In this document: positions 344 through 15,574 of the stretch, piece after piece | How the letters are laid out: the number at the start of each line of letters is the position of its first letter | Position numbering within the stretch: the stretch's first letter is position 1 | NCBI GenBank assembly: GCA_034722055.1 | Contig: JAYENL010000254.1 | Span: forward strand, 1 to 23,582 | Direction: 5' to 3' | From: Armatimonadota bacterium | Lineage (GTDB): Bacteria > Armatimonadota > Zipacnadia > Zipacnadales > UBA5352 | DNA length: 23,582 nt | Position numbers and translations under genes: made by a program | Notes under the pieces: model-generated | Database searches by the model: none | Seen by the model: the letters and a program-made list of their open reading frames with translations, nothing else | What the model was told of the DNA's origin: nothing

Positions 344-3300
344 TCAGCGCGCCTCCAGCCACGCCACGATGTTCCGCAGGAGCTGACCGCAGGCGTCCAC
401 GGAGAGGCCCTCCGGCGCCGCCTCGGTGCCGATAACGTAGCGGTCCGGCGACGGCTGCGCCACGAGCACGCCACCCCCGACATCCGCCTCGAGGATCGAC
501 GGGTTCCCGTTCTCGTCGCGGGCCAGCACCGTCCACGCGTCATCCTCCCCGACGATGGTGTCGTAGGAGATGACTCCGGCGAGAGGACCGACCTGGCCGG
601 GCCTCGCGAAGATGGCGTGGTGGGGTACGATAATCTCCGCCAGCGCGCTGGAATCGTCGGATAGCCTCAGCGGCAGCGGCAGGTACCCGGCCTGGTAGCT
701 GGTGTTCTGGAGCTGGATGAGCGCCACGCGGCCCCCGGAGGCGATGAAGTCGCGGATCAGCGGCCAGCCCTCCTGCAGGCCACAGAAGTCCTTCTCGTGT
801 GCCTCGCTCCCGATCAGCAGCGCCCCATAGCCCGCCAGCGTGGCGGCGCTGAGGTCCGGCAGGGCCGGCAGCTCTACGCCGATCTCCCCCAGCGCAGCGG
901 CCACCGGGTCCTCCTCGCCCGTCACCAGTCCCACCGCGTCGCCGATGTCGATCCGCCGCCCTGCGCGCGGCCTGGCGGTGAGCGTGCCCTCCGTCTCGTG
1001 GACGCGATAGCGGACCGTGACCTGCCCCTCGCCCGCGCCGGTGAGGCTGAAGGCCGGCCCCGGCTGCACGCCGGACTCGGCCGTCCACTCCACCGCCATC
1101 GGCTCGGCTGAGACCCCGTCGGGCAGCTCCACGATCTCGGCCATGGCCTGGAGCGGCCGCCGACCGCGGTTGTTGACCCGCACTGCCAGCAGGCCGGGCT
1201 GGCCGGCGGCCATGTACACCATACGCCCCATGCCCACCTGGGGCTCGGGCGGCGGCGGAGCGGGCAGCGCGGTCATCCCCCACTGCTGCATGGCGCTGAG
1301 GGCGAAGGGCGTCATGCGAATCTGCATGGCGTAGCCCTTGCCGGAGCCGGACGGCCCGCGGTTGATGACCATGTCGCCCAGCGAGCGCTCCAGCATCTCG
1401 CGGTAGATCTCCTCGCCGGCGAGGTCGTAGGCGTGCGCGAGGCCCTCGCAGGCCATGTAAGTGCCGGCGTGCGTGGAGCTGTCGTCGTACTGCGGGCACT
1501 GGGCGTACTGGAAGCTGTTGTCCTCGGGATGCCACATGCGCCAGTGGATCCAGTCGGCGCTGCGCACGATGGCGTTCCTGAGGTCCGGGTCGGGATCGAT
1601 CTGATCCAGCATCTTCAGTCCGGTCATGACCACGCCGGTCATGAAGGTCTTCCCGCCCATGTGCCGCACCTCGTGCTCGCACTCGCCGATGCCGTGGATC
1701 AGCGTGCCGGTGCCGGGATCCTGGCGGGCGACGACGTTCTGGCAGAACAGGCGCGCCGCGTTGAGATACCACGGGTGCGGGACGACGTGGTAGCCGCCCA
1801 GCGCGGCGATGGTGGTCCAGCCGTACTGCCGATGCACCCACTGCGACAGCCGCGTGGCCTCCTCCCGCGCCATCCAGTCCACCAGCAGCATGGCCGCCTC
1901 GCGGTAGCGGCGGTCGCCGGTGAGGCAGTAGGTGGTGAGCGTGCCCTGCGACCACACGTGGCCGGTGTTCCAGATGCCATCGGAGAACCAGTAGGTCGCC
2001 CCCTCCGGGCGCTGGATGTCGAAGCCGCCCACGTGCCCCACGCAGTGGGCCTTCTGAATGCCCACCAGGCTCTCGCTGGGCGCCACGTGGATGGTGTCCA
2101 CCGCGGCGGTGTGCCGCGCCGCCTCCTCCGCCCGGTCGAAGAACCGCCAGTCGCCCGAGCGCGCGAAGTGCACCAGCAGGCCCCACTGCAGGTCATACTC
2201 CTGGTTCGTCCAGTTCACCCACCGCTCCCCGTGCGTGTCGCCGAAGTTCATCCAGTCGTACTCCCGCACCCTCCGCCGGCGCTCCTCCAGCGCCTCGAAG
2301 CCCTCATCCATGTAGGTCTGGAAGCTCTCGAACACGCCGGGCTGCTCGGGCTCCAGCGGCTCGCCGAGCACGCCCGATGCACACATGTGCTCGGGACTGG
2401 CGGTCAGCAGCGGGATGTGGTCCCACGCCACGTCCATGATCTCCTTGGCCTCGGTATCATCGAAGCAGTAGAACAGGAGGTCGTAGCTGAGGGCCACGCC
2501 CATGGGGATGGAGTACTTGCCGTCGCTGCACCAGTAGTAATGCTGGGTGCGCTCCAGCGGCTCCATCTCCTCATCGGCGTACTGGTCGGCCGGCAGCTTG
2601 GGGAAGATCTCGGCCACCAGCCGTGAGCCCTTCGCCGAGTAGGCCTTGGGATAGAGCTGCCAGAAGTCGCGCATGGTCACGCCCAGGCTGCGCTGGAGGC
2701 CATCCTCCTCGTAGCTGAGGCCGACGGCCGCGTTCGTGTGCCCCTCATGCTCCTCCGTCCGGTCGCCGCGCGTCACGATGTAGCGGTTGTCGTAATCGTG
2801 CAGCATTCGCGTGCCCTGCTGGATCACCCGCCAGGCGTGCTCTGCCTCCTCTCGCTCCTCCTGGTCGGCCTCGCCGGCGATCTCCTCCCGCGACATCTCC
2901 GCCGCGAACCGGATGGGAACCGTGAGGCTCTCGATAAGGGTCATGGTCGGCGGCCGCACGGAGGTGCCCTCATCGCCGATGAGTGTGAAGACCGTGGGCA
3001 CGCCCGCAAAGCCGCGATAGAAGTACATGCGCCAGCGCCAGCCCAGCAGCTCGCCTGCGTCACCGGCGAACCGGCCCTCGGCGAGGATCACGGTGCGCAC
3101 GGGGCCGGCCTCCTCGACCTCCAGCCGCTCCACCGGCTGACCGGCGGTGGAGTAGACGTGGCCCTCGGCGTCGGTGAGCACCGCGCCCTCATCGGCGATG
3201 GCGATCCGCTCACTCTCAGCGAACCGCCCGTCGCCGTCGATGTCTCGCCAGAGGTCGCCCGGCGGCGAGAAGCGCTGGCGCGAGATCTCCGCCCGCAGCA

Positions 3301-5077
3301 CGTTGGTCGTGACGCGCAGCCCGTCCGGAGTCTCCTCGACGCGAATGGGCTCCGCCACCTCCGGCTGGCTCACCTGCTCGCCGTACTCCAGCGCGTAGTC
3401 CCCGGCGTCGCCTTCGTGCAGCACGCTGACCAGCAGCCACTTCACGCTGCCGTCCGGCCACCACGCCAGCTCCGTGAAGCCCGCCGGGATCGCCTCCCCG
3501 CCCCGCAGCAGTCGGCAGTGCGAGGCGTCGCGCAGATGGCCCTTTGGGATGGGAATGCCGCCGCTGATGGGCCACGCAGGCCGATCCTCCACCGGGTCGG
3601 TGACGGACAGCTCGACCCGCGCCCGCTCCACGCCACAGCGCTCCGGCCGCAGCGGCTCAGCGACGAAGGTGGCCACCTCCGACTGCGCCTGGCCCTCGCC
3701 ACGTCCCGCGACTGCACGGAAGCTGTAGGTCGCGCCACGGTCCAGATCGCGCAGCGTGATGCGATGGTTGTAGGTGCTATCCTCCTCCTCGGCGACCTGA
3801 TCCAGCTCGCCGGCACCCCACTGCACGCGCCCGCTGCATGGCCGATTGGTCAGGAAGCACACATCGACATCGACCGTCTCGCCCCGCTCGTCCGGAGCGC
3901 AGAAGGTCTCGATATCGCTGATGGTCAGCCCCGGCGGCTGCAGCATCTCCCGCGTGATGGTCAGCTCCGAGATGCGAGCATCCTGGGCCGGCCCGTCGCA
4001 GACGAGGCGGATCGACTGGCCCTCGCGCAAGGCCACCGGCTCGGGCGTGGAGCAGATGCGGATGAGGCCATCGTCACTCGCGGCCACCACCAGCGCCACC
4101 AGCTCATCGTCCAGGAAGACCTGCACCCGCTCCTGCCGCTCGGGGCTGTCCTGCAACACTACGTTGAGGTGATAGCTGCCGGAGACCGGTGCCGAGAGGG
4201 TGGCCGAGGCGCCCTTCTCGTCGGCGACCAGCGACCGGTCCTCGATGTGCATGTCCTGCACCCGGGCGGCGGTGAGGTCGAGCGTCACGGCGTCCATGGC
4301 GCGAAGCTGCTCCCGCCACGACAGCCACGGCTCCTCCACCCACACGCCCTCCGAGAGCAGCTCCGAGATGGAGCCCACGCGGGGCTTGAGGCGGTCGGAC
4401 TCGCCGGGTCCGCACACGGTGAACCACTCCTCGGAGCTGTCCTGATCGCCACTGGGCGGGCGGTACTGGCTGAGCACGTAGGCGCGGTACTCGGTGTTGC
4501 CCTGCTCGTTGTGGTTGAGCTGCAGGTCCATGGAGTAATACACGGAGCTGCCGTCGATGTAGCCGCGCAGGTCGCGGTTGTCCGAGAGCACGTCGGCGTT
4601 GCGGATGCTGGGCTTGAAGGAGCCGCTGGAGAAGACCAGCATCATGTCGGTGCCCAGCGCACCATCCTGGCGGCCGGTGGCGGTATCGTTGTCGCAGTCG
4701 AGGTAGAGGATGAGGATGGTGCCGGGCTTCCGGAAGTCCTCGGCGAAGTCCAGCCGCCAGACCCAGCGGTCCCCGGCTGCATTGCCGAAGTACAGGTTCG
4801 TGAAGTCGTTGGCCTGCTCGAAGTTGCCCGCCACCTCATCGCCCTCGGCCACCGAGCCGTCCTGGAAGACCAGGTGCATGGTGTCCGCGTGCTCGTCGTC
4901 CATCCCCAGGACCTTCTCGGCCATGTCCGGGATGCCGTCGTTGTCGGCGTCGGGCTGATCGGTGGCCAGCTCCGCCACCGGCGCCGGCTGCGGAGTGCCA
5001 TCATCGTCGGTGTCCTGGGCGAAACACGGCACGGCGAGCAGAGCAAGTGCGGCAAAGCATCTCGCAAAGCGCTTCAT
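344..5077 (-). CDS. Large secreted multidomain protein (~1577 aa) with a PcRGLX/YetA-like (exo-rhamnogalacturonan lyase, PL26-like) core
   Basis: Start reassigned to ATG 5077 (MKRFARCFAALALLAVPCFA signal peptide, GGAGG upstream). Has a DADNDGIPDMAE Ca-binding-like repeat, an FN3-like segment (YNHRITLRDLDRGATYSFRAVA) and PcRGLX-type motifs WPISGGIPIPKG, WPDGSVKWLLV, EEAGPVRTVI, YDWMNFGD and WTNQEYD, followed by an alpha-toroid-like region. Confidence 0.8.
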   Translation of the reverse strand: MKRFARCFAALALLAVPCFAQDTDDDGTPQPAPVAELATDQPDADNDGIPDMAEKVLGMDDEHADTMHLVFQDGSVAEGDEVAGNFEQANDFTNLYFGNAAGDRWVWRLDFAEDFRKPGTILILYLDCDNDTATGRQDGALGTDMMLVFSSGSFKPSIRNADVLSDNRDLRGYIDGSSVYYSMDLQLNHNEQGNTEYRAYVLSQYRPPSGDQDSSEEWFTVCGPGESDRLKPRVGSISELLSEGVWVEEPWLSWREQLRAMDAVTLDLTAARVQDMHIEDRSLVADEKGASATLSAPVSGSYHLNVVLQDSPERQERVQVFLDDELVALVVAASDDGLIRICSTPEPVALREGQSIRLVCDGPAQDARISELTITREMLQPPGLTISDIETFCAPDERGETVDVDVCFLTNRPCSGRVQWGAGELDQVAEEEDSTYNHRITLRDLDRGATYSFRAVAGRGEGQAQSEVATFVAEPLRPERCGVERARVELSVTDPVEDRPAWPISGGIPIPKGHLRDASHCRLLRGGEAIPAGFTELAWWPDGSVKWLLVSVLHEGDAGDYALEYGEQVSQPEVAEPIRVEETPDGLRVTTNVLRAEISRQRFSPPGDLWRDIDGDGRFAESERIAIADEGAVLTDAEGHVYSTAGQPVERLEVEEAGPVRTVILAEGRFAGDAGELLGWRWRMYFYRGFAGVPTVFTLIGDEGTSVRPPTMTLIESLTVPIRFAAEMSREEIAGEADQEEREEAEHAWRVIQQGTRMLHDYDNRYIVTRGDRTEEHEGHTNAAVGLSYEEDGLQRSLGVTMRDFWQLYPKAYSAKGSRLVAEIFPKLPADQYADEEMEPLERTQHYYWCSDGKYSIPMGVALSYDLLFYCFDDTEAKEIMDVAWDHIPLLTASPEHMCASGVLGEPLEPEQPGVFESFQTYMDEGFEALEERRRRVREYDWMNFGDTHGERWVNWTNQEYDLQWGLLVHFARSGDWRFFDRAEEAARHTAAVDTIHVAPSESLVGIQKAHCVGHVGGFDIQRPEGATYWFSDGIWNTGHVWSQGTLTTYCLTGDRRYREAAMLLVDWMAREEATRLSQWVHRQYGWTTIAALGGYHVVPHPWYLNAARLFCQNVVARQDPGTGTLIHGIGECEHEVRHMGGKTFMTGVVMTGLKMLDQIDPDPDLRNAIVRSADWIHWRMWHPEDNSFQYAQCPQYDDSSTHAGTYMACEGLAHAYDLAGEEIYREMLERSLGDMVINRGPSGSGKGYAMQIRMTPFALSAMQQWGMTALPAPPPPEPQVGMGRMVYMAAGQPGLLAVRVNNRGRRPLQAMAEIVELPDGVSAEPMAVEWTAESGVQPGPAFSLTGAGEGQVTVRYRVHETEGTLTARPRAGRRIDIGDAVGLVTGEEDPVAAALGEIGVELPALPDLSAATLAGYGALLIGSEAHEKDFCGLQEGWPLIRDFIASGGRVALIQLQNTSYQAGYLPLPLRLSDDSSALAEIIVPHHAIFARPGQVGPLAGVISYDTIVGEDDAWTVLARDENGNPSILEADVGGGVLVAQPSPDRYVIGTEAAPEGLSVDACGQLLRNIVAWLEAR

Positions 5078-5255
5078 CGTGTGCCTCCACGGGACATGGC
5101 TGTTGAGACCAGGGGCCCTGACAGCGCGCCTTGCGCCGATTGCCGACATGCAGCAAGATGTCCGCCCACGGCCTGACCATCGGCCGTGTGCCGGACCTGC
5201 AAGACATACAAGCCCTGGACCGCGCTGAGCGCCTGCTCTGGCGCGGCCTGCGCGG

Positions 5256-5939
5256 CTACGGCCAGTCAGGATCCATGCGGAAGTCCCGGCTGGCGTAGAG
5301 CGTGGGCGGGTAGTAAGCGTGCGGGACCCGTTCGCCGCTGACCCACTTGGCGTGACCGTCGCACAATGTGTAGTTCGCTCCCCCGTTGTGCCGATCGTAG
5401 CGCCAGACGAAGTTCTTGTTACCCGCGTCGGCTTCGTTGAACCATCGGCCGTAGGGGAGGTTCCCGTCCTGTTCGACCAGCATGATCACGCTCGCGGGCT
5501 CCCTGATTCTGGCCAGCTTTACCGGCTGGATGTAGCAGAAGTTGTAGTTCCAGCCGTAGCCAAGCGGCGGGTCATACACTTTGAGGCTGCCTCCGGAGCC
5601 CTGAACATAGAAGTAGTCGCGCATCTGACTGGGGCATGAGAGTATCTCCCGGTTCTTCAGGTAGGGCTCAATGTAGACGTACCACACTGACCGGCCACCC
5701 GGGTGGATGAGCGTCTCCGCTGGCTCACCTCCGGAATTGTGATACTGCAGTGGCAGGCGTTCGTCATAGTCCTGCGTGTACATCAGCACCGCCAGGCCGA
5801 TCTGCTTCATGTTGCTCAAGCAGCTCGTCTGCCGGGCCTTCTCACGGGCCCTCGCAAAGACCGGGAACAGGATCGCTGCCAGGATGGCGATTATGGCGAT
5901 CACCACCAGCAGCTCGATGAGTGTGAAACCTCGCTTCAT
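5256..5939 (-). CDS. DUF1559 / prepilin-type N-terminal cleavage-methylation domain protein with H-X9-DG motif
   Basis: Start at ATG 5939 gives MKRG^[45 protein letters not shown]-terminal [17 protein letters not shown]. Confidence 0.93.
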
Positions 5940-6059: not shown

Positions 6060-6821
6060 TCAGGACGGACGAGATGCTCCCACCCGTGGGTGAGCTGCGA
6101 CCACCAGCACATAGGGCACGTGCAGGAAGACCTCCCACTCGCCACAGGCGCCCGCAAGGCGCTGCCGGGCCTCGGCCACGGCCTGCCGCTCGGCATCGCT
6201 CAGAGGCAGGTCGTCCAGCAGCGCCAGCGCCTCGGCCTCCGCCGGTCGGGGGATGTGCGCCAGCTCCACCCACGGGTCCAGGCCGGCGCCCTCGCAGAGC
6301 CCGGGCAGCCTCCGGCCGACGCGCGGGTCGGCCCCGGCTCGGCTCAGCCCGTCGAGCCAGGCATCGCGGAGACCCATGGGAGGCTGCTCGAGCATCCCGC
6401 CGTAGTCCGGCTCCAGGGCCACCACGCAGCCGCCGGGCCTGAGGACCCGCGCCGCCTCACCGATGGCCGCCTCGGCCTTCCCGAGCCACAGGAGGACGTT
6501 CTCGAAGAGCACGAGGTCGAAGCTGGCGTCGGCGAAGGGGAGCTGTTCGGCATCGCCGGCCACAGGCCAACAGTGCGGTACCGCGGCCCAGCCCGCCCGC
6601 CGCTGTCCCAGCAGTATCTCGGCATCACGGTCGAGGGCCACCACCTGACCGCGGGCACGCCGCACAAGCTCGCCCGTCACCACCCCATGCCCGCACCCCA
6701 CCTCCAGCACGCGCTCCCGGACGCCGATCCGCGCCCGCCGCAAGGCACGCGACCGCGGCCCGGCCAGCCACCGGGCCAGCGCACGCGACAGCTCCAGCCC
6801 CGGGCGCTCCGGTACGCTCAC
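6060..6821 (-). CDS. Class I SAM-dependent methyltransferase (Methyltransf_11/UbiE-like fold)
   Basis: Motif I VLEVGCGHG, VVALD, GDAEQLPFADASFDLV and RVLRPGG. Start taken as GTG 6821, which overlaps the upstream TGA (GTGA, 6821-6818). Confidence 0.9.
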   Translation of the reverse strand: MSVPERPGLELSRALARWLAGPRSRALRRARIGVRERVLEVGCGHGVVTGELVRRARGQVVALDRDAEILLGQRRAGWAAVPHCWPVAGDAEQLPFADASFDLVLFENVLLWLGKAEAAIGEAARVLRPGGCVVALEPDYGGMLEQPPMGLRDAWLDGLSRAGADPRVGRRLPGLCEGAGLDPWVELAHIPRPAEAEALALLDDLPLSDAERQAVAEARQRLAGACGEWEVFLHVPYVLVVAAHPRVGASRPS

Positions 6822-8635
6822 CGGCCGCCACCGGCGCAGGCGCAGGCGCACGCGCAGCCGGCGCAGGCACAGGCGCAGCCGCCGCCCCCACTGAACCCGC
6901 CGCTGCCGCCGCTGGACTCGGCCATCGACTCCAGGAAGTCCATGCTGACCCTGTCCACGCCGGACAGGTCCATGACCTGGCTGTCAACAAGCCCGACGCT
7001 GACGGGGTCCATGGTGGCGGCCATGCGCCCGGTGACGTTCTCCGACCACCCCGCGAAGGAGGCCGCCACGTCGCCGAAGCTGGTCCGGTCGCCCGGCGCG
7101 GGCGCGGCCACGGTGGGGGCCTCGCCCGCCGGACGCGCCCAGCCCGGCGAGTAGTGATAGCCGGTGCGATGCCAGGTGTGGAAGTGCCGCGGGTAGCCGT
7201 CATCGAGCATCAGCCAGCCGATGTTGCTGTCCACGTACTCGTCGCGGCGCTCCACGTCGCCGATCTGCCGCGCCTCCGACCAGGCGTCGGCGACGATGGA
7301 CTGGTAGTACTCCCGGGTGCGCTCCAGATCGAAGCCCGCCATGCGCTCGGCGAGCTGATTGACGAGATGGCGCATCTGTTTGCTCAGGTCCAGGTCCGGG
7401 ATCGGCACGCCGGGCCGCTCCATGACGGCGTCCAGGAACGGCTGCTCGTAGCCGCGAACGACCGTCCCCAGCTTCGCCGCCACCTCCCGGCGCTCTCCAC
7501 GCGTGGTCCTGAAGTGCTCCGGGACCTCCACCGTCACCGGGTCATCGTTGATCATCACCACGAGGCCCTTCTTCAGCATCCCGAAGACCACCAGCGCCAA
7601 CACCTGGCCGAGCGGGCGCTCCAGCAGCACCGCCGCCTCGGGGGCCGTCAGCCCCCGCTTGATCTCCCCGCCCGGCACGGACTCAATGGGCGGCAGATAC
7701 GAGCGGCGCCGTGACGCTATCAGCCGGTCGCCCAGCAGCCACAGAAGGATCAAGACCGGGATGGCTACCAGCTCCAGCGTGGGCCCCAGCGGATTCGGCA
7801 GCGACCACAGGACCGGCAGGGCGATGACCAGAGGGATGAACAGGCAGGTGCCGGTGCCGCCGGTAAGCCGGAAGTACCACAGCGAGAACAGGATCAGCAG
7901 CACAATCCCCACGACCACCCGCGCGGTGCCGCTCTCCGTCCACCACTTCCACGCCAGGTCCAGCGCGGTCTGCCTCACCACCTGCTCCATCCAGTCCCTG
8001 GGGAAGGACAGGCCCACCATGTGCGCGTGGGACAGGCGCGTGTCAGCGAACACCCACGCGACAGCCTTGCGGCCCTCGAGCTGCATCTTGCGGTCGAAGG
8101 GCCGGTCGAGCTGGTAGACGACGTCGTCGGGATTCACCGAGTCCGGCAGATAGACCACGATCATGAGGTCCGTGGTCTCAGTCAGGAGGTCGCTATCGAA
8201 CCACGTCGGCGTGATGCGCAGGGAGGCCAGCTCCGCGTTGGTCGTGTCCTGATAGACCCGGTTGGGCATGGTGGCCTCAAACTCGAAGGTCCCGGTCTGG
8301 TTGGGCTGGATGGGAGGGCTCAGCGGCACCTCCACGCCCACGTCAACGTACTCCGAGGGCCGGATGGTTCGCTGGGGCATGCCGTTGAGCGACGCGCTCA
8401 TGTTGGCGATGTTGTAGTCGCGGTCCGGCAGCCCGATGTCCACGATGTCAATGGGGTCGGCGCCCCCGTTGCAGTGCAGCTTGATCGTGTACTGCAGCGT
8501 GACGGAGGCGTCAACATTCGGCGTGACCTCGAAGCGCATCTGAGGCACCGAGAACGAGTAGTCCTGCGCCTGGGCGGCGCTGCCCGTCACGAACGCGAGC
8601 GCGGCACAGACGAGCATCCACCGGGCGCGTGTCAC
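6818..8635 (-). CDS. Membrane protein (signal peptide, extracytoplasmic beta-domain, ~3 TM, cytoplasmic domain) with a Gly/Ser linker and a C-terminal (Cys-Ala)n tail; DUF2207-like architecture
   Basis: Signal MTRARWMLVCAALAFVTGSAAQA. Hydrophobic segments VVVGIVLLILFSLWYF, CLFIPLVIALPVLWSL and LVAIPVLILLWLLG, followed by RRR. Ends SSGGSGGFSGGGGCACACAGCACACACAGGGR. GTG start overlaps the upstream TGA, with GAGGTG SD. Confidence 0.88.
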   Translation of the reverse strand: MTRARWMLVCAALAFVTGSAAQAQDYSFSVPQMRFEVTPNVDASVTLQYTIKLHCNGGADPIDIVDIGLPDRDYNIANMSASLNGMPQRTIRPSEYVDVGVEVPLSPPIQPNQTGTFEFEATMPNRVYQDTTNAELASLRITPTWFDSDLLTETTDLMIVVYLPDSVNPDDVVYQLDRPFDRKMQLEGRKAVAWVFADTRLSHAHMVGLSFPRDWMEQVVRQTALDLAWKWWTESGTARVVVGIVLLILFSLWYFRLTGGTGTCLFIPLVIALPVLWSLPNPLGPTLELVAIPVLILLWLLGDRLIASRRRSYLPPIESVPGGEIKRGLTAPEAAVLLERPLGQVLALVVFGMLKKGLVVMINDDPVTVEVPEHFRTTRGERREVAAKLGTVVRGYEQPFLDAVMERPGVPIPDLDLSKQMRHLVNQLAERMAGFDLERTREYYQSIVADAWSEARQIGDVERRDEYVDSNIGWLMLDDGYPRHFHTWHRTGYHYSPGWARPAGEAPTVAAPAPGDRTSFGDVAASFAGWSENVTGRMAATMDPVSVGLVDSQVMDLSGVDRVSMDFLESMAESSGGSGGFSGGGGCACACAGCACACACAGGGR

Positions 8636-9912
8636 CGCACCTCACCACCTTGGCGATCATCGCTCCAGCCCGCCGGGTCCTTGGGGCAGTCGGCGCTGCA
8701 GATGGGCAGGTCCGGGCAGTCGGGGCAGCGCGTGGGCTGCTTGAGGCGCTCGCGATAGCGCTCGAAGGCCTCGTGGCCCCAGATGTCCGCCCAGGCATCC
8801 GCCAGGAGGTTCCCCGCAGCCTGGGCGCCGCGCGGGGGCAGCACCGTCCCGTCGGCCCGCACCCGGATGGTGATGTCCGCGGAGGTGCGGGGGCCGGCCA
8901 GGACTTGCTCGGCCAGGCCGCGAGCGCTGTCGAAGCGCACCGGGGGCGCCCACAGGTAGCGGGCCTGCGTGCTCTCCGCCAGCTCAATGAAGGTCGTGGC
9001 CACCTGCGGCAGGGCCCGGGCGGGCAGGGCGCCGGAGGCGTCGGCGGCCTCGTCCTCGTCCGGGCAGGCGATGGCGAAGCCCACGATGTTCGTGACCCCC
9101 AGCTCTTGCAGCCGTCCCATCATCTCGTCCAGGTCCGCGAGGTTGGCGTCGATCAGCGGCACCTGCGCCACCACCGCCAGCTCCAGAGCCTGCGCCTGCT
9201 TCACCGCGGCCACGAAGGCCGCGTAGTCCCCCTCGCCGCAGGTCGCATCATGCTCGGCGCGGTCGTGGCAGACGAAGAGCAGGTCGAGGTGGTCCAGCCC
9301 CGCCATGGCGCAGGCCTCGATGACCTGCGGTCCGCTTGACTCCCCGGAGCCGAGCCAGCCGGCGACCGTCCGCAACCCGCAGATCATGCCGATGTCCTCC
9401 GCCGCCTCCACCAGCAGCACAAGCTGCGCCACGTCCCCGGCCGGGTCGGTCTGGATGGCCGCGTGGGGAATCCCGGCGTCCCACAGGCGACGGATGAGCT
9501 GCTTGAAGCGATCCAGCTCGCACTGCTCCACGTCCGCCCGCAGCGGCGCCGCAAGCTGGCGCTGCCACTCCGAGAAGCGGGGGTCGGTGAGGTTGCTGAC
9601 GGGGTAGTTATCGCCGGGCTTGGAGAGGTCGGCGATCAGCTCCTGCACCGCCGCCAGGTCCGCCTGGACCTGACTCTCCGGCGCGCCCGGGAAGCTCTGC
9701 ATGACCCCGGAGACGATCTCCTCCTCGGCGCGCTCCTCCAGGATGCCTCGCGCCATGCGGACGCCGACCGGGGACAGGTAGGCCGCCTCCGCCGCGTTCG
9801 CCAGCAGCAGCCCTCGCCCGTCGGGATCGATCCGCAGGTGGAAGCGCGTCGGCCACTCGCCGACCAGCCGCTCGTAGGGCCTGATGTCTACGCCGTTCGG
9901 CCTGTCTGACAC
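8632..9912 (-). CDS. Degenerate radical SAM/SPASM paralogue lacking CxxxCxxC (putative pseudo-enzyme partner)
   Basis: GTG 9912 with GAGGTG SD 8 nt upstream. Colinear with the upstream rSAM protein (FHLRIDPDGRGLL; APLRAD; RLWDAGIP; AGLDHL; AGNLLADAWADIW; CPDCPDLPICSADCP) but has no CxxxCxxC or GGEP. Confidence 0.85.
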   Translation of the reverse strand: MSDRPNGVDIRPYERLVGEWPTRFHLRIDPDGRGLLLANAAEAAYLSPVGVRMARGILEERAEEEIVSGVMQSFPGAPESQVQADLAAVQELIADLSKPGDNYPVSNLTDPRFSEWQRQLAAPLRADVEQCELDRFKQLIRRLWDAGIPHAAIQTDPAGDVAQLVLLVEAAEDIGMICGLRTVAGWLGSGESSGPQVIEACAMAGLDHLDLLFVCHDRAEHDATCGEGDYAAFVAAVKQAQALELAVVAQVPLIDANLADLDEMMGRLQELGVTNIVGFAIACPDEDEAADASGALPARALPQVATTFIELAESTQARYLWAPPVRFDSARGLAEQVLAGPRTSADITIRVRADGTVLPPRGAQAAGNLLADAWADIWGHEAFERYRERLKQPTRCPDCPDLPICSADCPKDPAGWSDDRQGGEVR

Positions 9913-11339
9913 CGGCTCATCACCTCGCCTCGCCTTGCTCTGAGTTCCAGGGGACAGCCCCCGCCACACAGCCTCAGATGCTCGCAGTCGTGGCACTCGG
10001 GCGGCAGGTCGGAGCGCTCGGGGTGTTCCCGCCGGAATCGGATGCTGGTGAACAGGTCACTCTCCCAGATGCTCTCCCAGTCGTCGCGGAGGATGTTGCC
10101 CGCCGGCTGGTAGTAGGACTGGCAGGGCAACACGTCGCCATTGGGCTCCACGCACACGGAGTACTCGGCGGCATTGCAGAATCGCAGCCCCAGGCCCATC
10201 TCCGCGGGCGAGAGCTCGCAGTGTCGCGTCACGGTGTACCAGATGAAGCGCATCCCCCGCGCCCCCGCCCGGTCGCGCACCCGCGCCACGACCTGGCGGA
10301 GGCGCTCGATGCTCAGGGCGTCGGGGTGGTCTGTGCCGCGGCCGGAGTGGATGATCCCGTTCATCGCGAAGGTCGTCAGCCCCAGCCCCGCGAGGAAGTC
10401 GATGATCGCCTCCGCGTCGGCCGCGTTGTCCTCGGTGAGGGTGGTGTTGGTGATAGTGTGCAGCCCCGCGTCGAGGGCATTGCGGATGCCCGCCACCGTC
10501 TCGTCATACGCCTCGGCGCGGACAATGCGGTTGTGCGGCTCCCGCCGGTGCGACGCGAGCGTGATCTGCACGTGATCGAGCCCGGCCCGCGTGAGTCGCT
10601 CGACCAGCTCCCGGTCGGCGAGCCGCCGGCCGTTCGTGTTCATGCCGCACACCTGGCCGAGGAACTCAGCGTGCTCGACGAGGTCGAGCAGGTCCGGGTG
10701 CAGCGTGGGCTCGCCCCCGGTGAGGATGACGTAGGGTACGCCGATGTCCCAGAGGCGCTCGAGCACCAGCCACCAGTGCTCGACGTTGAGCGACCGCATC
10801 TCCCGGCGCTCGGGCTCGTTGTAGCAGTGCGCGCAGTCGTTGTTGCAGGCGTAGCTCAACGCCAGATCGGCCTTGTAGGGCGCCTGCGCGCGCACCGACA
10901 GCGGCGGCGGCTGCGGGATGCCCAGCTCGCAGATCACGCAGCCCTCCGCGGGTTGCCGCAGCTTCCGCATCGCCGCGGCCATGCGATCGTACTCGGACCG
11001 CAGCGCGAAGTCGCGCACCCCCGGGTAGAAGGTCCGCAGGCGCACGAGCGCCCGGTCGGCGGGCGTGTCGTCGAGCGCCGGCTCGGCCATCTCCACCTGC
11101 TGGGGACCGAGCAGCAGCGCGTCGGTCACGTTGCGCCACAGCACGCCGGTGCCGTCCTCGTGCACGCGCAGGTGCAGGCGCACGCGTCCTTCCGGCGTCT
11201 CGAAGCGCCAGTGGCGCATGCGCACGCCGCGCCGGGGCCGCAGCGCCCCAAGCCGCGCGCCCAGCCGGCCGAGGTCGGCGCGGATCTCTGCGCCCGCGCG
11301 CCTGGCGATACGGCCGAAGAAGGACGAACCGCTTACCAC
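9888..11339 (-). CDS. Radical SAM/SPASM-domain protein with a PqqD/RRE-like N-terminal domain
   Basis: CNNDCAHC at 10824-10847, ILTGGEPT, NTNG, SPASM CNAAEYSVCVEPNGDVLPC...GNIL...CHDCEHLRLCGGGCP. Start GTG 11339 with GAGGAG SD, overlapping the upstream stop. The ORF-track extension to 11930 overlaps other genes. Confidence 0.93.
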   Translation of the reverse strand: MVSGSSFFGRIARRAGAEIRADLGRLGARLGALRPRRGVRMRHWRFETPEGRVRLHLRVHEDGTGVLWRNVTDALLLGPQQVEMAEPALDDTPADRALVRLRTFYPGVRDFALRSEYDRMAAAMRKLRQPAEGCVICELGIPQPPPLSVRAQAPYKADLALSYACNNDCAHCYNEPERREMRSLNVEHWWLVLERLWDIGVPYVILTGGEPTLHPDLLDLVEHAEFLGQVCGMNTNGRRLADRELVERLTRAGLDHVQITLASHRREPHNRIVRAEAYDETVAGIRNALDAGLHTITNTTLTEDNAADAEAIIDFLAGLGLTTFAMNGIIHSGRGTDHPDALSIERLRQVVARVRDRAGARGMRFIWYTVTRHCELSPAEMGLGLRFCNAAEYSVCVEPNGDVLPCQSYYQPAGNILRDDWESIWESDLFTSIRFRREHPERSDLPPECHDCEHLRLCGGGCPLELRARRGEVMSRCQTGRTA

Positions 11340-11674
11340 TTGGGCTTCTCCTCGAGCTGGTAGGTCGTGCCGCAGTACGGGCACTTCACGTAGATGGCGC
11401 CCTCCCGCATCTCGATGGCGTCGGAGTCGAGCTGGGCCCCGCAGGAATTGCAGCGCAGGCGCTCGAGCTCCGTGTCGCCGGTGAAGTCTACCTTGTGGGT
11501 GATCTTGGTCTCCGGGCCCTTTGAGCGCGCCAGGTAGACCAGGAACCCCGCCGCGCCCAGCAGCACCACGCCGATGATCACGCGCGGCAGCGCGTTGCCC
11601 TGACCGGCCGCCACCAGGAAGATCAGTCCCGCGACTCCGAGGACGATCGCAAGCAGGTATCCAGCGGTCTTCAT
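11333..11674 (-). CDS. Small membrane protein: 2 TM helices plus a C-terminal CxxC...CxxC zinc ribbon
   Basis: MKTAGYLLAIVLGVAGLIFLVAAG and VIIGVVLLGAAGFLVYLARSK helices; LRCNSCGAQL...VKCPYCGTTYQLEE; 113 aa; stop overlaps the rSAM start. Confidence 0.85.
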   Translation of the reverse strand: MKTAGYLLAIVLGVAGLIFLVAAGQGNALPRVIIGVVLLGAAGFLVYLARSKGPETKITHKVDFTGDTELERLRCNSCGAQLDSDAIEMREGAIYVKCPYCGTTYQLEEKPKW

Positions 11675-11892: not shown

Positions 11893-13281
11893 ATGGCTGC
11901 CGGCGATCGGCCCAACATACTCTTCATCATCTCCGACGACCAGTCGTTCCCCCATGTCAGCTACGCCGGCGATCCCGTGGTGCGGACGCCCAACTTCGAC
12001 CGCGTGGCCCACCAGGGCGTCATCTTCACCAACGCCTACGTCTCCTCGCCCTCATGCACTCCCTCGCGCGCCTCGGTGCTGACCGGCCGGAATCACTGGG
12101 AGCTGCGCGAGACCGGCAACCTCTGGAGCCTCTGGCCCGGGTGGGCGACATACACACAGCGATTCGCGGACGCCGGCTATCACGTCGGCTACTCGGCCAA
12201 GGGCTGGGCGCCAGGCCGCCGGGAGGACATGCGCGAGAACAACCCCGCCGGCCCCCGCTACGCGGATGTCCGCGAGTTCCTGGCCGCCGACTCCGGAGGG
12301 CGGCCGTTCTGCTACTGGTTCGGCAGTCACCGTCCCCACCGGCCCTACGTGGAGGGCTCCGGCGTGCAGGCCGGCATGAGCCTCGACGACGTGCCGGTGC
12401 CTCTGTTCTTTCCTGACGCCGAGCCCCTGCGCGCCGACATCGCCGACTACTACCTGCAGTGCCAGATGTACGACGCGCAGATCGGCGAGATCCTGGCGGC
12501 CCTGGAGGAGGCCGGCCGGCTGGAGAACACGCTCATCGCGGTGACCAGCGACAACGGCATGCCCTTCCCCCGCTGCAAGGCCAACCTCTATGACTTCGGC
12601 ACGCGCATGCCGCTGGCGGTCGCCTGGCCGGGGGTCATCGAGGGCGGGCGCATCGTGGATGACTTCGTCAGCTTCGCCGACTTCGCCCCGACCTTCCTGG
12701 AGGCCGCGGGCCTTCAGCCGCTGCCACACGCATCGGGCCGTAGCTTCCTGGACGTGCTCACCAGCGGCCGATCCGGCCGCGTCGATCCCCAGCGCGACCG
12801 CGTGCACTGCGGGCGCGAGCGCCATGCCATCTTCGGCACCGGCGGCGTCGGCTACCCCATGCGCTCGCTCCGCACCGACCGGTTCCTCTACATCCGCAAC
12901 TTCGCGCCCGACCGCGGGCCGGCCGGCAACCCGCCGCTCTACGGGGATGTGGACCCGGGCATCACCAAGCGCTACATGATCCGCAATCGTGACCTGCCCC
13001 AGGTGGCGCCGCTGTTCGAGCTGGCCTTCGGCGGACGCCCGCCGGAGGAGCTTTACGACCTGCGGCGCGACCCCGCACAGATGGTCAACGTGGCGCACCT
13101 GCCGGAGTACGAGGAGATCCGGCGCCGGCTGTGGGACGAACTGGAGAGCTACCTGGCGGCCACCGGTGATCCGCGCCTGGAGGACGATAGCTTCGACTTC
13201 GACACACAGGAGTACTTCGGCGGCCGGGCCTGGGCGCCCCGGCGGCAGCCGGAGGTGTTCACCCGCCGGCCACGGCCCTGA
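11893..13281 (+). CDS. Formylglycine-dependent sulfatase (family S1, Cys-type; resembles N-sulfoglucosamine sulfohydrolase-like members)
   Basis: RPNILFIISDD, SCTPSRASVLTGR (CxPxR), TSDNGMPFPRCKANLYDFGTRMPL, EELYDLRRDPAQMVN; GGAGG SD; no signal peptide. Confidence 0.95.
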   Translation: MAAGDRPNILFIISDDQSFPHVSYAGDPVVRTPNFDRVAHQGVIFTNAYVSSPSCTPSRASVLTGRNHWELRETGNLWSLWPGWATYTQRFADAGYHVGYSAKGWAPGRREDMRENNPAGPRYADVREFLAADSGGRPFCYWFGSHRPHRPYVEGSGVQAGMSLDDVPVPLFFPDAEPLRADIADYYLQCQMYDAQIGEILAALEEAGRLENTLIAVTSDNGMPFPRCKANLYDFGTRMPLAVAWPGVIEGGRIVDDFVSFADFAPTFLEAAGLQPLPHASGRSFLDVLTSGRSGRVDPQRDRVHCGRERHAIFGTGGVGYPMRSLRTDRFLYIRNFAPDRGPAGNPPLYGDVDPGITKRYMIRNRDLPQVAPLFELAFGGRPPEELYDLRRDPAQMVNVAHLPEYEEIRRRLWDELESYLAATGDPRLEDDSFDFDTQEYFGGRAWAPRRQPEVFTRRPRP

Positions 13282-13303
13282 TACAGCCTGAGAGGTGACA
13301 CGG

Positions 13304-15574
13304 ATGGCCGACTTCACGGCGACCGAGCGCGGCGTTTCGGTGTGCGATGAGGGAACGATGCTGGCCGAGTTCTGCGCGCCGGGCATCCTCCGCATTCGCG
13401 GCTGGCGCGGCGATGAGCCGCGGATGTCCCCGTTGCTCCGCTACGACCTGTGGCGGCGCCAATGGCCCCAGGTGCAGGTCGAGACGCGCGTGGAGGCCGA
13501 TGGGGCCGTCGCGACCACCGACCTGCTGGCGGTCGAGATGGACGCTGACGCCTCCTTCCGCGTGCTGAACGCGGACGGCGCGGAGCTGCTGGCGACCTTC
13601 CAGCGCCCCATGCTCGGGCCGGCGCCGGGCTTTCGCGCCCGGTTCGCCCTGGAGCAGGCCGATCGCTTCTACGGCCTGGGCGATCAGACCCGGGAGCGCA
13701 TCCAGCACCGGGGGACGAGCGGCGATCTGTGGGTGCGCAACGTCGAGGAGTACATCCCCATCCCCTTCGTGATCTCCACCCGCGGCGTGGGGCTGCTGGT
13801 GCAGACCACCCGCCGCGTCCTCTACGATCTCGGCGCCACCTCCGACGACTGGTTCGGCTTTGAGGCCGAGGGCCAGCACCTCGACCTCTACGTCATCTAC
13901 GGGCCGGAGCCGCTTCAGATCGTCGAGCGCTACACGCGCATCACGGGCCGTCCGATGTTGCCGCCGCGGTGGGGCTTGGGCCTGTGGTTCATCTGTCGCA
14001 CACAGGCGGACGCGAAGGAGTTCACCGACGACTGCCGCAACTTCCGGCGCGAGGGCATCCCCTGCGACTGCATCGGCCTGGAGCCGGGCTGGATGCAGAC
14101 GAACTACGACGCCTCGGTGGAGAAGACCTGGAGCGACGAGCGCTTCCGCATCCCTCCCTACAGCCGCTTCCGCCACACCTTCTTCGCCGCCGCCCAGCGC
14201 ATGGGCTTCAAGCCGGGCCTGTGGCTGTGCAATGACTACGACCTCTCCTATGAGGAGGAGCGGCGCGTCGATCCCGAGCTGAAGCAGGCCGAGCAGCAGC
14301 GCGACGCGGAGCGCGCGGCCTTCGCCACAGGCCACGAGGTGGACGAGCGCCCTTCGGGTCAGCGCCGCCTCGACCGCCTCACGCGCCAGGAGGAGCCGTG
14401 GTTCCAGCACCTGCAGCGCTTCGTGGACGAGGGCGCGCACTGGTTCAAGCAGGACGGCGCCTACCAGGTCCTCGAGCATCCCGATCGCCTGTGGGGCAAC
14501 GGGATGACCGACGCGCAGATGCACAACCTCTACCCCCTCATCTACTCCAAGCAGATGTACCTGGGCTTCCGGGAGCATACCGAGCGGCGGACCTTCCCGT
14601 TCACGCCCGCCGGCTGGGCCGGCCTGCAGCGCTGGACCGGCACCTGGACCGGCGACACCGGAGGCGAGGAGGGCCCGCTGGGAGCCTGCCTGAACCTCAG
14701 CCTCTCCGGACACGGCCTCAGCACCGTGGACATGGAGGCCGGCACGCCGGAGGGCATCCACTTCGGCTTCCTCCTGCCCTGGGCGCAGCTCAACTCCTGG
14801 AACTACTGGCGGCACCCGTGGCTGCAGGGGGAGCGCCTGCAGTGCATCTTCACCGACTACGCCCGCCTGCGCTACCGGCTGCTGCCCTACCTCTACTCCT
14901 GCGCCTGGCAGGCCCACCGCACGGGCGTGCCCATGATGCGCGCCATGCCGCTCGTTCACGACCAGCCGGACGCGGACGAGTGCCTCCGGCAGTTCTATCT
15001 GGGCCCCTCCCTGCTGGCGGGCTGCTTCACCGACCGGCTGTGGGTGCCCGGGGGCCAGTGGCACAACTTCTGGACCGGCGAGCGCTTGGACGGCGGCGGA
15101 TGGATCAGCCCGGAGGTGCCCGAGGGCCGCGGCGGGCCGCTGCTGGCTCCCGCGGGCGGGATGCTGCTGATGGGTCCGGAGATGGACTACGTCGGTCAGC
15201 GGCCGGACGATGAGCTGACGGTGCACGTCTTCGCCGGCGCGGCCGGCGAGATCACGCTCTACGAGGACGATGGCGAGACCTTCGCCTTCGAGGAGGGCGA
15301 GTACCGCACCCAGCGCATCTGCCACGAGCCGGTGGGCGACGGCCTGGGCGTGCACTTCGGCCCCGCGGAGGGCGAGTTCGAGGGCGCACTCGCCCGCCGG
15401 GAGCTGACCGTGGTGGCGCACGGCCTGCAGGACGTGACCAGCGTGGTCCTCGACGGGGAGGCGATCGCCCCATCGGCAGACGGCCCGCGGCCTCGCTGGC
15501 AGTGGCAGGCGAACGTGGTCACCGTGGAGCTGGGCCGGCGCGACGTGGGGCGCCTGGAGCTGGTTATCGAGTAG
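13304..15574 (+). CDS. Glycoside hydrolase family 31 (alpha-glycosidase)
   Basis: FYGLGDQ, IPIPFVIS, YTRITGRPMLPPRWGLG, FRREGIPCD, WFKQDG (nucleophile position), WTGD (acid/base), LRYRLLPYLYS, GVPMMRAM, LYEDDGET. ATG 13304 is preferred over GTG 13295 because of the GAGGTG SD. Confidence 0.92.
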   Translation: MADFTATERGVSVCDEGTMLAEFCAPGILRIRGWRGDEPRMSPLLRYDLWRRQWPQVQVETRVEADGAVATTDLLAVEMDADASFRVLNADGAELLATFQRPMLGPAPGFRARFALEQADRFYGLGDQTRERIQHRGTSGDLWVRNVEEYIPIPFVISTRGVGLLVQTTRRVLYDLGATSDDWFGFEAEGQHLDLYVIYGPEPLQIVERYTRITGRPMLPPRWGLGLWFICRTQADAKEFTDDCRNFRREGIPCDCIGLEPGWMQTNYDASVEKTWSDERFRIPPYSRFRHTFFAAAQRMGFKPGLWLCNDYDLSYEEERRVDPELKQAEQQRDAERAAFATGHEVDERPSGQRRLDRLTRQEEPWFQHLQRFVDEGAHWFKQDGAYQVLEHPDRLWGNGMTDAQMHNLYPLIYSKQMYLGFREHTERRTFPFTPAGWAGLQRWTGTWTGDTGGEEGPLGACLNLSLSGHGLSTVDMEAGTPEGIHFGFLLPWAQLNSWNYWRHPWLQGERLQCIFTDYARLRYRLLPYLYSCAWQAHRTGVPMMRAMPLVHDQPDADECLRQFYLGPSLLAGCFTDRLWVPGGQWHNFWTGERLDGGGWISPEVPEGRGGPLLAPAGGMLLMGPEMDYVGQRPDDELTVHVFAGAAGEITLYEDDGETFAFEEGEYRTQRICHEPVGDGLGVHFGPAEGEFEGALARRELTVVAHGLQDVTSVVLDGEAIAPSADGPRPRWQWQANVVTVELGRRDVGRLELVIE

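Follow-up and report, generated by a model that had tools for sequence, protein, structure and literature searches.

A conserved cysteine-alanine tail on a DUF2207-like membrane protein, proposed substrate of a co-inherited radical S-adenosylmethionine enzyme

Results

A five-gene cassette encoding a protein with a Cys-Ala tail

The window analysed in this study, i.e. the entire stretch of 23,582 nucleotides from contig JAYENL010000254.1 (Armatimonadota assembly GCA_034722055.1), harbours a cassette of five minus-strand genes whose ends touch or overlap. They encode a small zinc-ribbon membrane protein, an enzyme which combines an RRE (recognition element of RiPPs, peptides which are made on ribosomes and modified after translation) with radical S-adenosylmethionine (rSAM) and SPASM domains, a pseudo-rSAM paralogue, a membrane protein of 605 residues hereafter referred to as the carrier, and a methyltransferase (Table 1). 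The C-terminus of the carrier reads ...MDLSGVDRVSMDFLESMAESSGGSGGFSGGGGCACACAGCACACACAGGGR* and closes with the tail CACACAGCACACACAGGGR. A preliminary description made from the letters of the window had pointed to seven cysteines within 14 residues behind a Gly/Ser linker and an acidic segment. This is exactly what is present at codons 6836-6877, the first Cys codon occupying 6875-6877 and the last one 6836-6838. Such Cys-richness is not unique since, among the 10,253 frames of this genome which run from stop to stop over 200 residues or more, 17 contain at least five cysteines in their last 25 positions; it is the conservation described below, and not Cys-richness alone, which confirms the observation. 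The carrier gives no Pfam or NCBIfam match at E≤0.1, and its profile finds no sequence relative in the PDB. A promoter and terminator scan was uninformative (no promoters; two terminators versus 1.2 expected).

Conservation and subtypes of the tail

Among the best 120 of 804 homologues of the carrier, 118 possess the tail, with an identical 19-residue end in 71, one CA unit fewer in 44 and a single substitution in three; of the two without it, one is labelled partial and the other diverges early. The closest homologue among the matches listed (89% identity) is labelled Armatimonadota. As this first query had included the tail, a tail-free profile was built from 20 carriers, which retrieved 453 clusters at E≤1e-30. 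The best 150 of these comprise 125 with a CA...CAGGG end, one with a variant Cys tail and 24 which end or lose similarity ahead of the tail position and whose status as fragments is not demonstrable from context. C589 to G604 are invariant throughout an alignment of 88 full-length homologues, from which two fragments without a tail, as well as further rows of the 121, had been excluded. Cys spacing and the terminal GGGR are strictly conserved, and mean column identity amounts to 0.95 in the tail versus 0.55-0.68 in the carrier body.

Codon variation within the tail of the window is slight (one TGT among seven Cys and one GCG among seven Ala codons). Across genomes, however, third codon positions vary while the protein remains constant, hence the tail is indeed, as had been maintained, not a pure microsatellite. 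Two genome samples were used here and below, consisting of 251 genomes from the phylum of the window and 181 from the class of G256, a genome which holds an Anaerolineales locus (432 in total); a reversed-pattern control has no match in either (0/251 and 0/181). Together, homologue conservation, third-position variation and this control rule out a microsatellite or chance origin.

A carrier-independent DNA scan for codons specifying CACACAGGGR leads to an estimate of about 2,400 stretches in GTDB, extrapolated from four of its 64 parts. The 120 loci returned belong to Chloroflexota, Bacillota, Thermoplasmatota, Heimdall- and Hodarchaeota, Planctomycetota, Fermentibacterota and others, and in most full-length loci the motif closes a membrane protein of 300-700 residues. 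Type I tails, most of which contain six to eight cysteines, stop at GGGR, while the type II tails of clostridia add a short extension led by AGCS. Many type II tails carry CAHSSC or CVSSC units ahead of the CA run and, judged from these units, are possible intermediates between the CA form and the CHSA form described below. The residue preceding Cys is Ala, Gly or Ser in about 99% of cases in type I and about 98% in type II. Of the layout of leader, linker and core suggested in the preliminary description, the Gly/Ser linker, which lacks a conserved cleavage motif, and the core-like C-terminal tail are present. The acidic stretch as a universal leader is ruled out by the upstream segments, which differ between type I tails (of 77 retrieved by the motif scan, 63 have a TNPxP-type segment and 12 a DLSGxD segment). 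One locus from the window's own phylum (L132, G044:C435) shows a tail resembling type II (CACACVSCACACACAGGGGAGCS...), a kind which is elsewhere observed in Clostridia.

Pairing of tail and enzyme

The suspected tight pairing of the tail with a clade of RRE-rSAM/SPASM enzymes is borne out at the level of loci as well as of genomes. Within 79 motif-selected loci with wide flanks (49 type I, 29 type II, one unclassed) an rSAM gene is located at a distance of up to 8 kb in 72 (43/49, 28/29 and 1/1, respectively), in 71 cases on the same strand. Of the other seven loci, three are truncated by a contig end, and in four the orthologue is located at another place of the genome (503-597 bits, compared to at most 108 for the next best). 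In the phylum sample the tail is found in 25 of 251 genomes and the enzyme (at least 248 bits) likewise in 25, both being present in 24; in G099 the carrier runs off the contig end. In the class sample the 25 of 181 genomes with a tail are the same 25 which possess the enzyme (at least 487 bits). Thus, 49 of the 50 tail genomes in both samples harbour the enzyme. The genes lie on different contigs in seven genomes of the class sample, three of which were inspected. G309 and G378 have zinc-ribbon and carrier genes at one place and enzyme and methyltransferase genes at another; the seeming lack of linkage in G428 is an assembly split at contig ends. Genes truly apart yet both retained occur in G251, G309, G378 and G219, and a lone carrier in G254 is a second copy. 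In Lachnospiraceae, two tail-bearing carriers per contig are observed (L028 and L097/L113), which in L028 flank a single enzyme gene.

The zinc-ribbon, methyltransferase and pseudo-enzyme genes are confined to type I loci (39, 28 and 26 of 49, respectively), and a zinc ribbon is fused into 12 of 27 type II carriers. As these accessory genes are restricted to type I, and the minimal clostridial system consists of enzyme and carrier with nothing else, enzyme and tail constitute the core of the system. Carriers devoid of the cytoplasmic domain still have both. Neighbour gene clusters include no conserved protease or dedicated exporter; a generic ABC ATPase cluster is present in 17 loci, neither its distance nor its strand being constant. 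Likewise, no short Cys peptide family of at least 80 residues is conserved nearby, shorter peptides not having been searched.

Architecture of the enzyme

The enzyme displays the RRE/rSAM/SPASM architecture of a peptide maturase. C165, C169 and C172 of its CxxxCxxC core (PF04055, 100 bits) as well as C388, C406 and C462 are invariant in all 41 orthologues, and the SPASM domain exceeds the cut-off of PF13186; type II enzymes are devoid of three cysteines of the AuxII (auxiliary cluster II) type. A PqqD/RRE match at E≤0.01 is obtained for 21 of the 41 orthologues and not for the window enzyme itself, whose model features the three-strand/three-helix N-terminal layout of an RRE. Its nearest solved relative is SkfB, both by sequence (126 bits) and by fold (Foldseek rank 1). 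In the pseudo-rSAM paralogue the CxxxCxxC motif is deleted and an RRE-like region plus the last four SPASM cysteines are retained; speculatively, the retained RRE-like region may make this protein a binding partner. The methyltransferase gene accompanies tails of type I, whose C-terminal Arg is free; equally speculatively, its product may act on this residue or on thiols.

Fold and topology of the carrier

In the model of the carrier (mean predicted local distance difference test score, pLDDT, 82.5), a signal helix is followed by a beta-sandwich, by three membrane helices and by a helical domain, the tail not being resolved. In accordance with this, and with the preliminary description, the hydropathy scan reveals a signal-like segment (7-23) and hydrophobic helices at 236-252, 263-279 and 286-302, the third being followed by RRR. 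The beta-sandwich resembles the Ost1 subunit of oligosaccharyltransferase (6c26_1; Z 15.4, root-mean-square deviation (rmsd) 2.8, 180 residues aligned) as well as the N-domains of M1 aminopeptidases. The helical C-terminal domain matches GOLPH3/Vps74 less strongly (3kn1: Z 8.5, rmsd 3.6, 157 aligned; 2zih: Z 6.8). The Ost1 domain is lumenal while GOLPH3 is cytosolic. Since the majority of distant carriers, and all full-length clostridial carriers scanned, have a signal segment plus one hydrophobic helix, the C-terminus is predicted to be inside; the proposed cytoplasmic location of the tail is thus supported as a prediction. A fourth segment (346-362) exceeds the hydropathy threshold in 69 of 118 close sequences. 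Because it contains KK and falls into the GOLPH3-like part of the model, we regard it as the core of a soluble domain and a fourth transmembrane (TM) helix as unlikely.

Atlas comparisons place DUF2207 clusters among the neighbours of the carrier (feature score 0.93-0.95; TM-score 0.45/0.49 to one of them). The window carrier does not reach the gathering score of PF09972 or PF20990, its best relative attaining 24.3 versus 24.4, and several carriers match PF09972 below threshold. Five carriers of 766-838 residues (P0124, P0125, P0126, P0127, P0130) show two profile stretches, apparently due to a duplicated N-terminal domain.

A second tail type with its own enzyme clade

The next-best enzymes adjoin homologous carriers which end in (CHSA)n. 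With the tails removed, CA and CHSA carriers align over 358 columns covering both domains (hhalign 99.9%, E 3e-32). At the CHSA loci (L124:7202-9013(-), L134:2884-4746(+), L175-L254, L295-L311) the tails end in CVSGGAH or CVSSF and are followed by an rSAM clade of their own; neighbours include a further conserved membrane protein in 41 loci and a coiled-coil protein in 14. Genomes with a CHSA-clade enzyme possess a CHSA carrier in 20 of 20 cases (phylum sample) and 28 of 30 (class sample), both misses being situated near contig ends. The short ACHSAC pattern is noisy (110/251 genomes), so only tandem matches were counted, all 20 of which were verified as carriers. Conversely, where 1.5 kb or more of sequence is available downstream of a CHSA carrier (54 cases), the enzyme is nearby in 52. 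The two systems co-occur in none of the 432 genomes (expected 2.0, p 0.11; expected 3.9, p 0.011; kinship uncorrected). A tree of 121 enzymes computed with FastTree places the CA group (66 rows, support 98) and the CHSA group (54 rows, support 84) on separate sides; as its outgroup is a single long branch and further rSAM families are not included, sister-clade status is not proven. Tail subtype changes seven times on this tree, the minimum being six. The CHSA form is estimated to occur in about 1,400 metagenome stretches.

Ala precedes Cys in 94% of cases in CHSA tails; a small residue ahead of Cys is thus shared by CA and CHSA tails, mostly at i+3 as well. Two CHSA carriers match TIGR04222 weakly (28.2 and 22.3 bits, E 1.4e-6 and 8.3e-5; cut-off 43 bits), the window carrier not at all. 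The SbtM model scores 71-76 bits on two CHSA-clade enzymes. Two open reading frames (ORFs) of 140-144 residues (L224:4965-5399(-), L228:4977-5399(-)) display CHSA-like repeats followed by GSRGWR with no enzyme of the CHSA clade nearby, and are probably classical CXXX-repeat precursors.

Discussion

The tail as a proposed substrate

We propose that the Cys-Ala tail is the substrate of the co-inherited enzyme and assign a probability of roughly 0.65 to this reading, since the enzyme has the layout of a maturase and the tail is the sole invariant Cys-rich, core-like sequence. The tail would then represent a RiPP-like core which remains attached to a membrane protein at the end predicted to be cytoplasmic. 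The RRE would bind a segment upstream of the Gly/Ser linker, possibly a clade-specific one, and an auxiliary cluster would bind a tail thiol. Hydrogen abstraction would enable a C-S bond to a nearby Ala or Gly carbon (-2 Da each); a Cys(i)-to-(i+3) thioether would be compatible with both tail types. As no conserved protease is seen among the neighbour clusters, the product would presumably not be released and might act as a rigid, thiol-rich arm of an envelope-spanning protein which binds metal or a partner. With respect to the chemistry, thioether cross-links are preferred because of the closest relatives of the enzyme. Overall, we consider them somewhat less than an even bet and a thiooxazole or other Cys chemistry clearly less probable still.

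A number of points weigh against this assignment. The tail lacks Asp, Glu and Thr, the usual acceptors in ranthipeptides, and rings from i to i+3 would overlap in alternating Cys unless some Cys alone react. There is no universal leader upstream of the tail. The window enzyme reaches none of the NCBIfam maturase cut-offs (SkfB, StsB, PqqE, NirJ2, others), and the eight live enzymes scanned likewise stay below every one of them; the best score, 115 versus 500 bits, belongs to NirJ2, a non-peptide enzyme. The match of tail subtype to enzyme tree can arise from shared descent alone. Co-inheritance indicates a shared pathway and is silent on which part is modified. G174, a genome 89% complete, carries an intact tail with no enzyme orthologue found; moreover, the score thresholds of 248 and 487 bits were set after the fact at visible gaps, and kin genomes in the pairing counts are not independent. 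The assignment itself is derived from sequence and genome pairing.

Alternative explanations

The same substrate might undergo a different chemistry, in that units of a small residue and Cys are oxidised to 5-thiooxazoles (-4 Da), giving a tethered multi-thiol metal chelator as an oxygen-independent counterpart of the products of MNIOs (multinuclear non-heme iron oxidases). This would agree with the small residue preceding nearly every Cys, yet positions i+3 and i-1 account for the data about equally well. According to PMC9204691, the rSAM/SPASM enzyme SbtM makes a thio(seleno)oxazole at Gly-Cys; its model, however, is absent from the best 25 of 67 matches of the window enzyme and scores modestly on the two CHSA-clade enzymes mentioned. 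Seven thiooxazoles and a role involving copper are described for fontiphorin in PMC12668002. A link to MNIO genes exists for membrane proteins of the TIGR04222 family, which bear Gly/Ser/Cys tails, but PMC12452194 predicts these tails to be periplasmic and only proposes their modification, and the carrier matches to this family remain below cut-off. Altogether, we judge this alternative unlikely.

About as unlikely is a tail which stays unmodified and serves as a binding site for a metal or an Fe-S cluster, with the enzyme acting on another part of the carrier, on the zinc-ribbon protein or on a cofactor delivered to the tail. The cysteines of type I tails and the Cys/His of CHSA tails are plausible ligands, a zinc-ribbon partner is frequently adjacent or fused, and the pseudo-enzyme retains four cluster-type cysteines. 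On the other hand, the invariant Ala and GGGR would be more than a simple ligand strand requires, the RRE is a peptide-binding module, the tail type switches along with the enzyme clade, and tail and enzyme persist in carriers without the cytoplasmic domain. Metal or Fe-S binding, for which the preliminary description considered the alternating thiols suitable, appears less likely as the whole story; the tail, once modified, may have this function.

That the membrane protein is a giant leader from which a host protease releases a modified core is improbable, given a conserved carrier body, a linker without cleavage motif and neighbours devoid of a conserved protease or dedicated exporter, in spite of the C-terminal position of the tail behind a flexible linker and of the short ORFs in L224 and L228, whose related CHSA repeats match TIGR04117 weakly.

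Taking a wider view, a DUF2207/TIGR04222-like envelope superfamily might carry Cys tails which are RiPP-like and can be exchanged. In anaerobic lineages, ranging from Clostridia to Asgard archaea, mutually exclusive (CA)n or (CHSA)n rSAM versions would convert the tail into a metal chelator, either a poly-thiooxazole or a poly-thioether, which stays tethered. Built on an entire membrane protein, it would correspond to the MNIO captophorins while being independent of oxygen. We regard this idea as doubtful.

Relation to known systems

The closest parallel to the proposed tail modification is CrpA/CrpC of Methanococcus voltae. According to PMC13692751, CrpC cross-links Cys motifs of CrpA, a 29 kDa protein with 17-residue repeats, forming thioethers within four-residue motifs such as CAGM and CPLV. 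Both cases join an RRE-rSAM-SPASM enzyme to a protein with a repetitive C-terminal Cys region, but the repeats of CrpA are of the CxxQ/D type while the window tail contains no Q or D. A term search of that paper and three supplements finds no mention of membrane, CACA or DUF2207, and TIGR04463 (the CrpC family) is not among the best 25 of 67 matches of the window enzyme. SkfB, CteB, PapB and QhpD, maturases of sactipeptides and ranthipeptides, share its domain layout at no more than 22% identity, below all curated cut-offs; here, in contrast, the proposed substrate is the end of a 600-residue membrane protein without acidic acceptors, and the carrier is not a short precursor with a leader and a released core. 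TIGR04222 proteins, too, are membrane proteins; they end in a Gly/Ser/Cys sequence of low complexity, on which a Cys-modifying enzyme encoded next to them is proposed to act. The enzyme class differs, though, and, according to PMC12452194, the tails are variable and periplasmic by prediction and the link is loose (one third of genomes without MNIO), compared to a near-invariant tail and near-complete pairing in the present case. SbtM (TIGR04082) is likewise an rSAM/SPASM acting on a small-residue-Cys motif, yet on a short (seleno)peptide, and its profile match is weak. With DUF2207 (PF09972/PF20990) the carrier may share signal, beta-sandwich, TM region and cytoplasmic domain, and there are sub-threshold PF09972 matches in several carriers as well as Atlas neighbours; a gathering-level match is lacking, and Cys tail and rSAM cassette lie outside the family descriptions examined. 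An effect of a Streptococcus mutans DUF2207 member on stress tolerance is described in PMC10457818. Finally, (CHSA)n tails match the CXXX-repeat rSAM targets of TIGR04117 weakly (E 0.011-0.089), but members of that family are small predicted peptides, and the Cys-Ala carriers scanned give no match.

The system is real, widespread and undescribed in the literature covered, our searches, which left subscription journals and figures outside their coverage, having found no description of it. It resembles a thioether RiPP maturase system but does not belong to one, since it has no short precursor and reaches no curated cut-off. Few cases of RiPP-type rSAM chemistry on large proteins are proven, QhpC and CrpA being named in PMC13692751; none on an integral membrane protein was found in the papers and curated families searched. 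The system is common in bacteria, including gut Clostridia, and archaea, is not represented by a curated model and would be overlooked by genome mining aimed at short precursors. With a 19-residue tail and one enzyme it is compact for study, the motif matches including the cultured hosts Ornatilinea apprima and Gemmiger formicilis; if our proposal is true, it offers a first handle on the DUF2207-like scaffold.

Genes flanking the cassette and minor observations

Table 1. Coordinates of the cassette, of the parts of the carrier and of flanking genes in the window.
Feature	Position	Strand	Basis
Carrier, 605-residue DUF2207-like membrane protein with Cys-Ala tail	6818..8635	-	ORF; homologue search; Atlas neighbours including DUF2207 clusters
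Tail C587-R605, proposed substrate	6821..6877	-	model pLDDT <50
Gly/Ser linker S574-G586, length variable	6878..6916	-	homologue comparison
Acidic segment M555-E573, candidate clade-specific recognition segment	6917..6973	-	L557 and D561 invariant in close homologues
Predicted cytoplasmic domain 328-536, GOLPH3/Vps74-like fold, moderate match	7028..7654	-	structure comparison
Three predicted TM helices spanning 236-302, then RRR	7730..7930	-	hydropathy and model
Predicted extracytoplasmic beta-sandwich 24-214, Ost1/ribophorin-I and M1-aminopeptidase N-domain fold	7994..8566	-	structure comparison
Predicted signal peptide	8567..8635	-	hydropathy and model
RRE-rSAM-SPASM enzyme	9888..11339	-	domain scan, orthologue alignment, model
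Pseudo-rSAM paralogue; true start maybe ~85 nt downstream	8632..9996	-	domain scan and alignment
Small membrane protein, C-terminal zinc ribbon, cassette member	11333..11674	-	domain scan and locus comparison
Class I SAM methyltransferase, type I cassette member; GTG overlaps carrier stop	6060..6821	-	domain scan and locus comparison
PcRGLX-like lyase, unrelated neighbour	344-5149	-	
Prepilin-type DUF1559 protein, unrelated neighbour	5256-5939	-	
Sulfatase, divergent from cassette, unrelated neighbour	11893-13281	+	
Likely alpha-glycosidase, unrelated neighbour	13295-15574	+	

A role of the window enzyme as an anaerobic sulfatase-maturating enzyme is not supported, the sulfatase not being among the recurrent neighbour clusters. 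The live and the pseudo-enzyme are separated by a small gene, PAS-like as judged from its sequence, in 11 Anaerolineales loci (L009, L021, L031, L038, L039 and others). One enzyme (L003:2875-4503(+)) possesses a C-terminal extension of its own which carries a GGGCAGCSGSCG motif.

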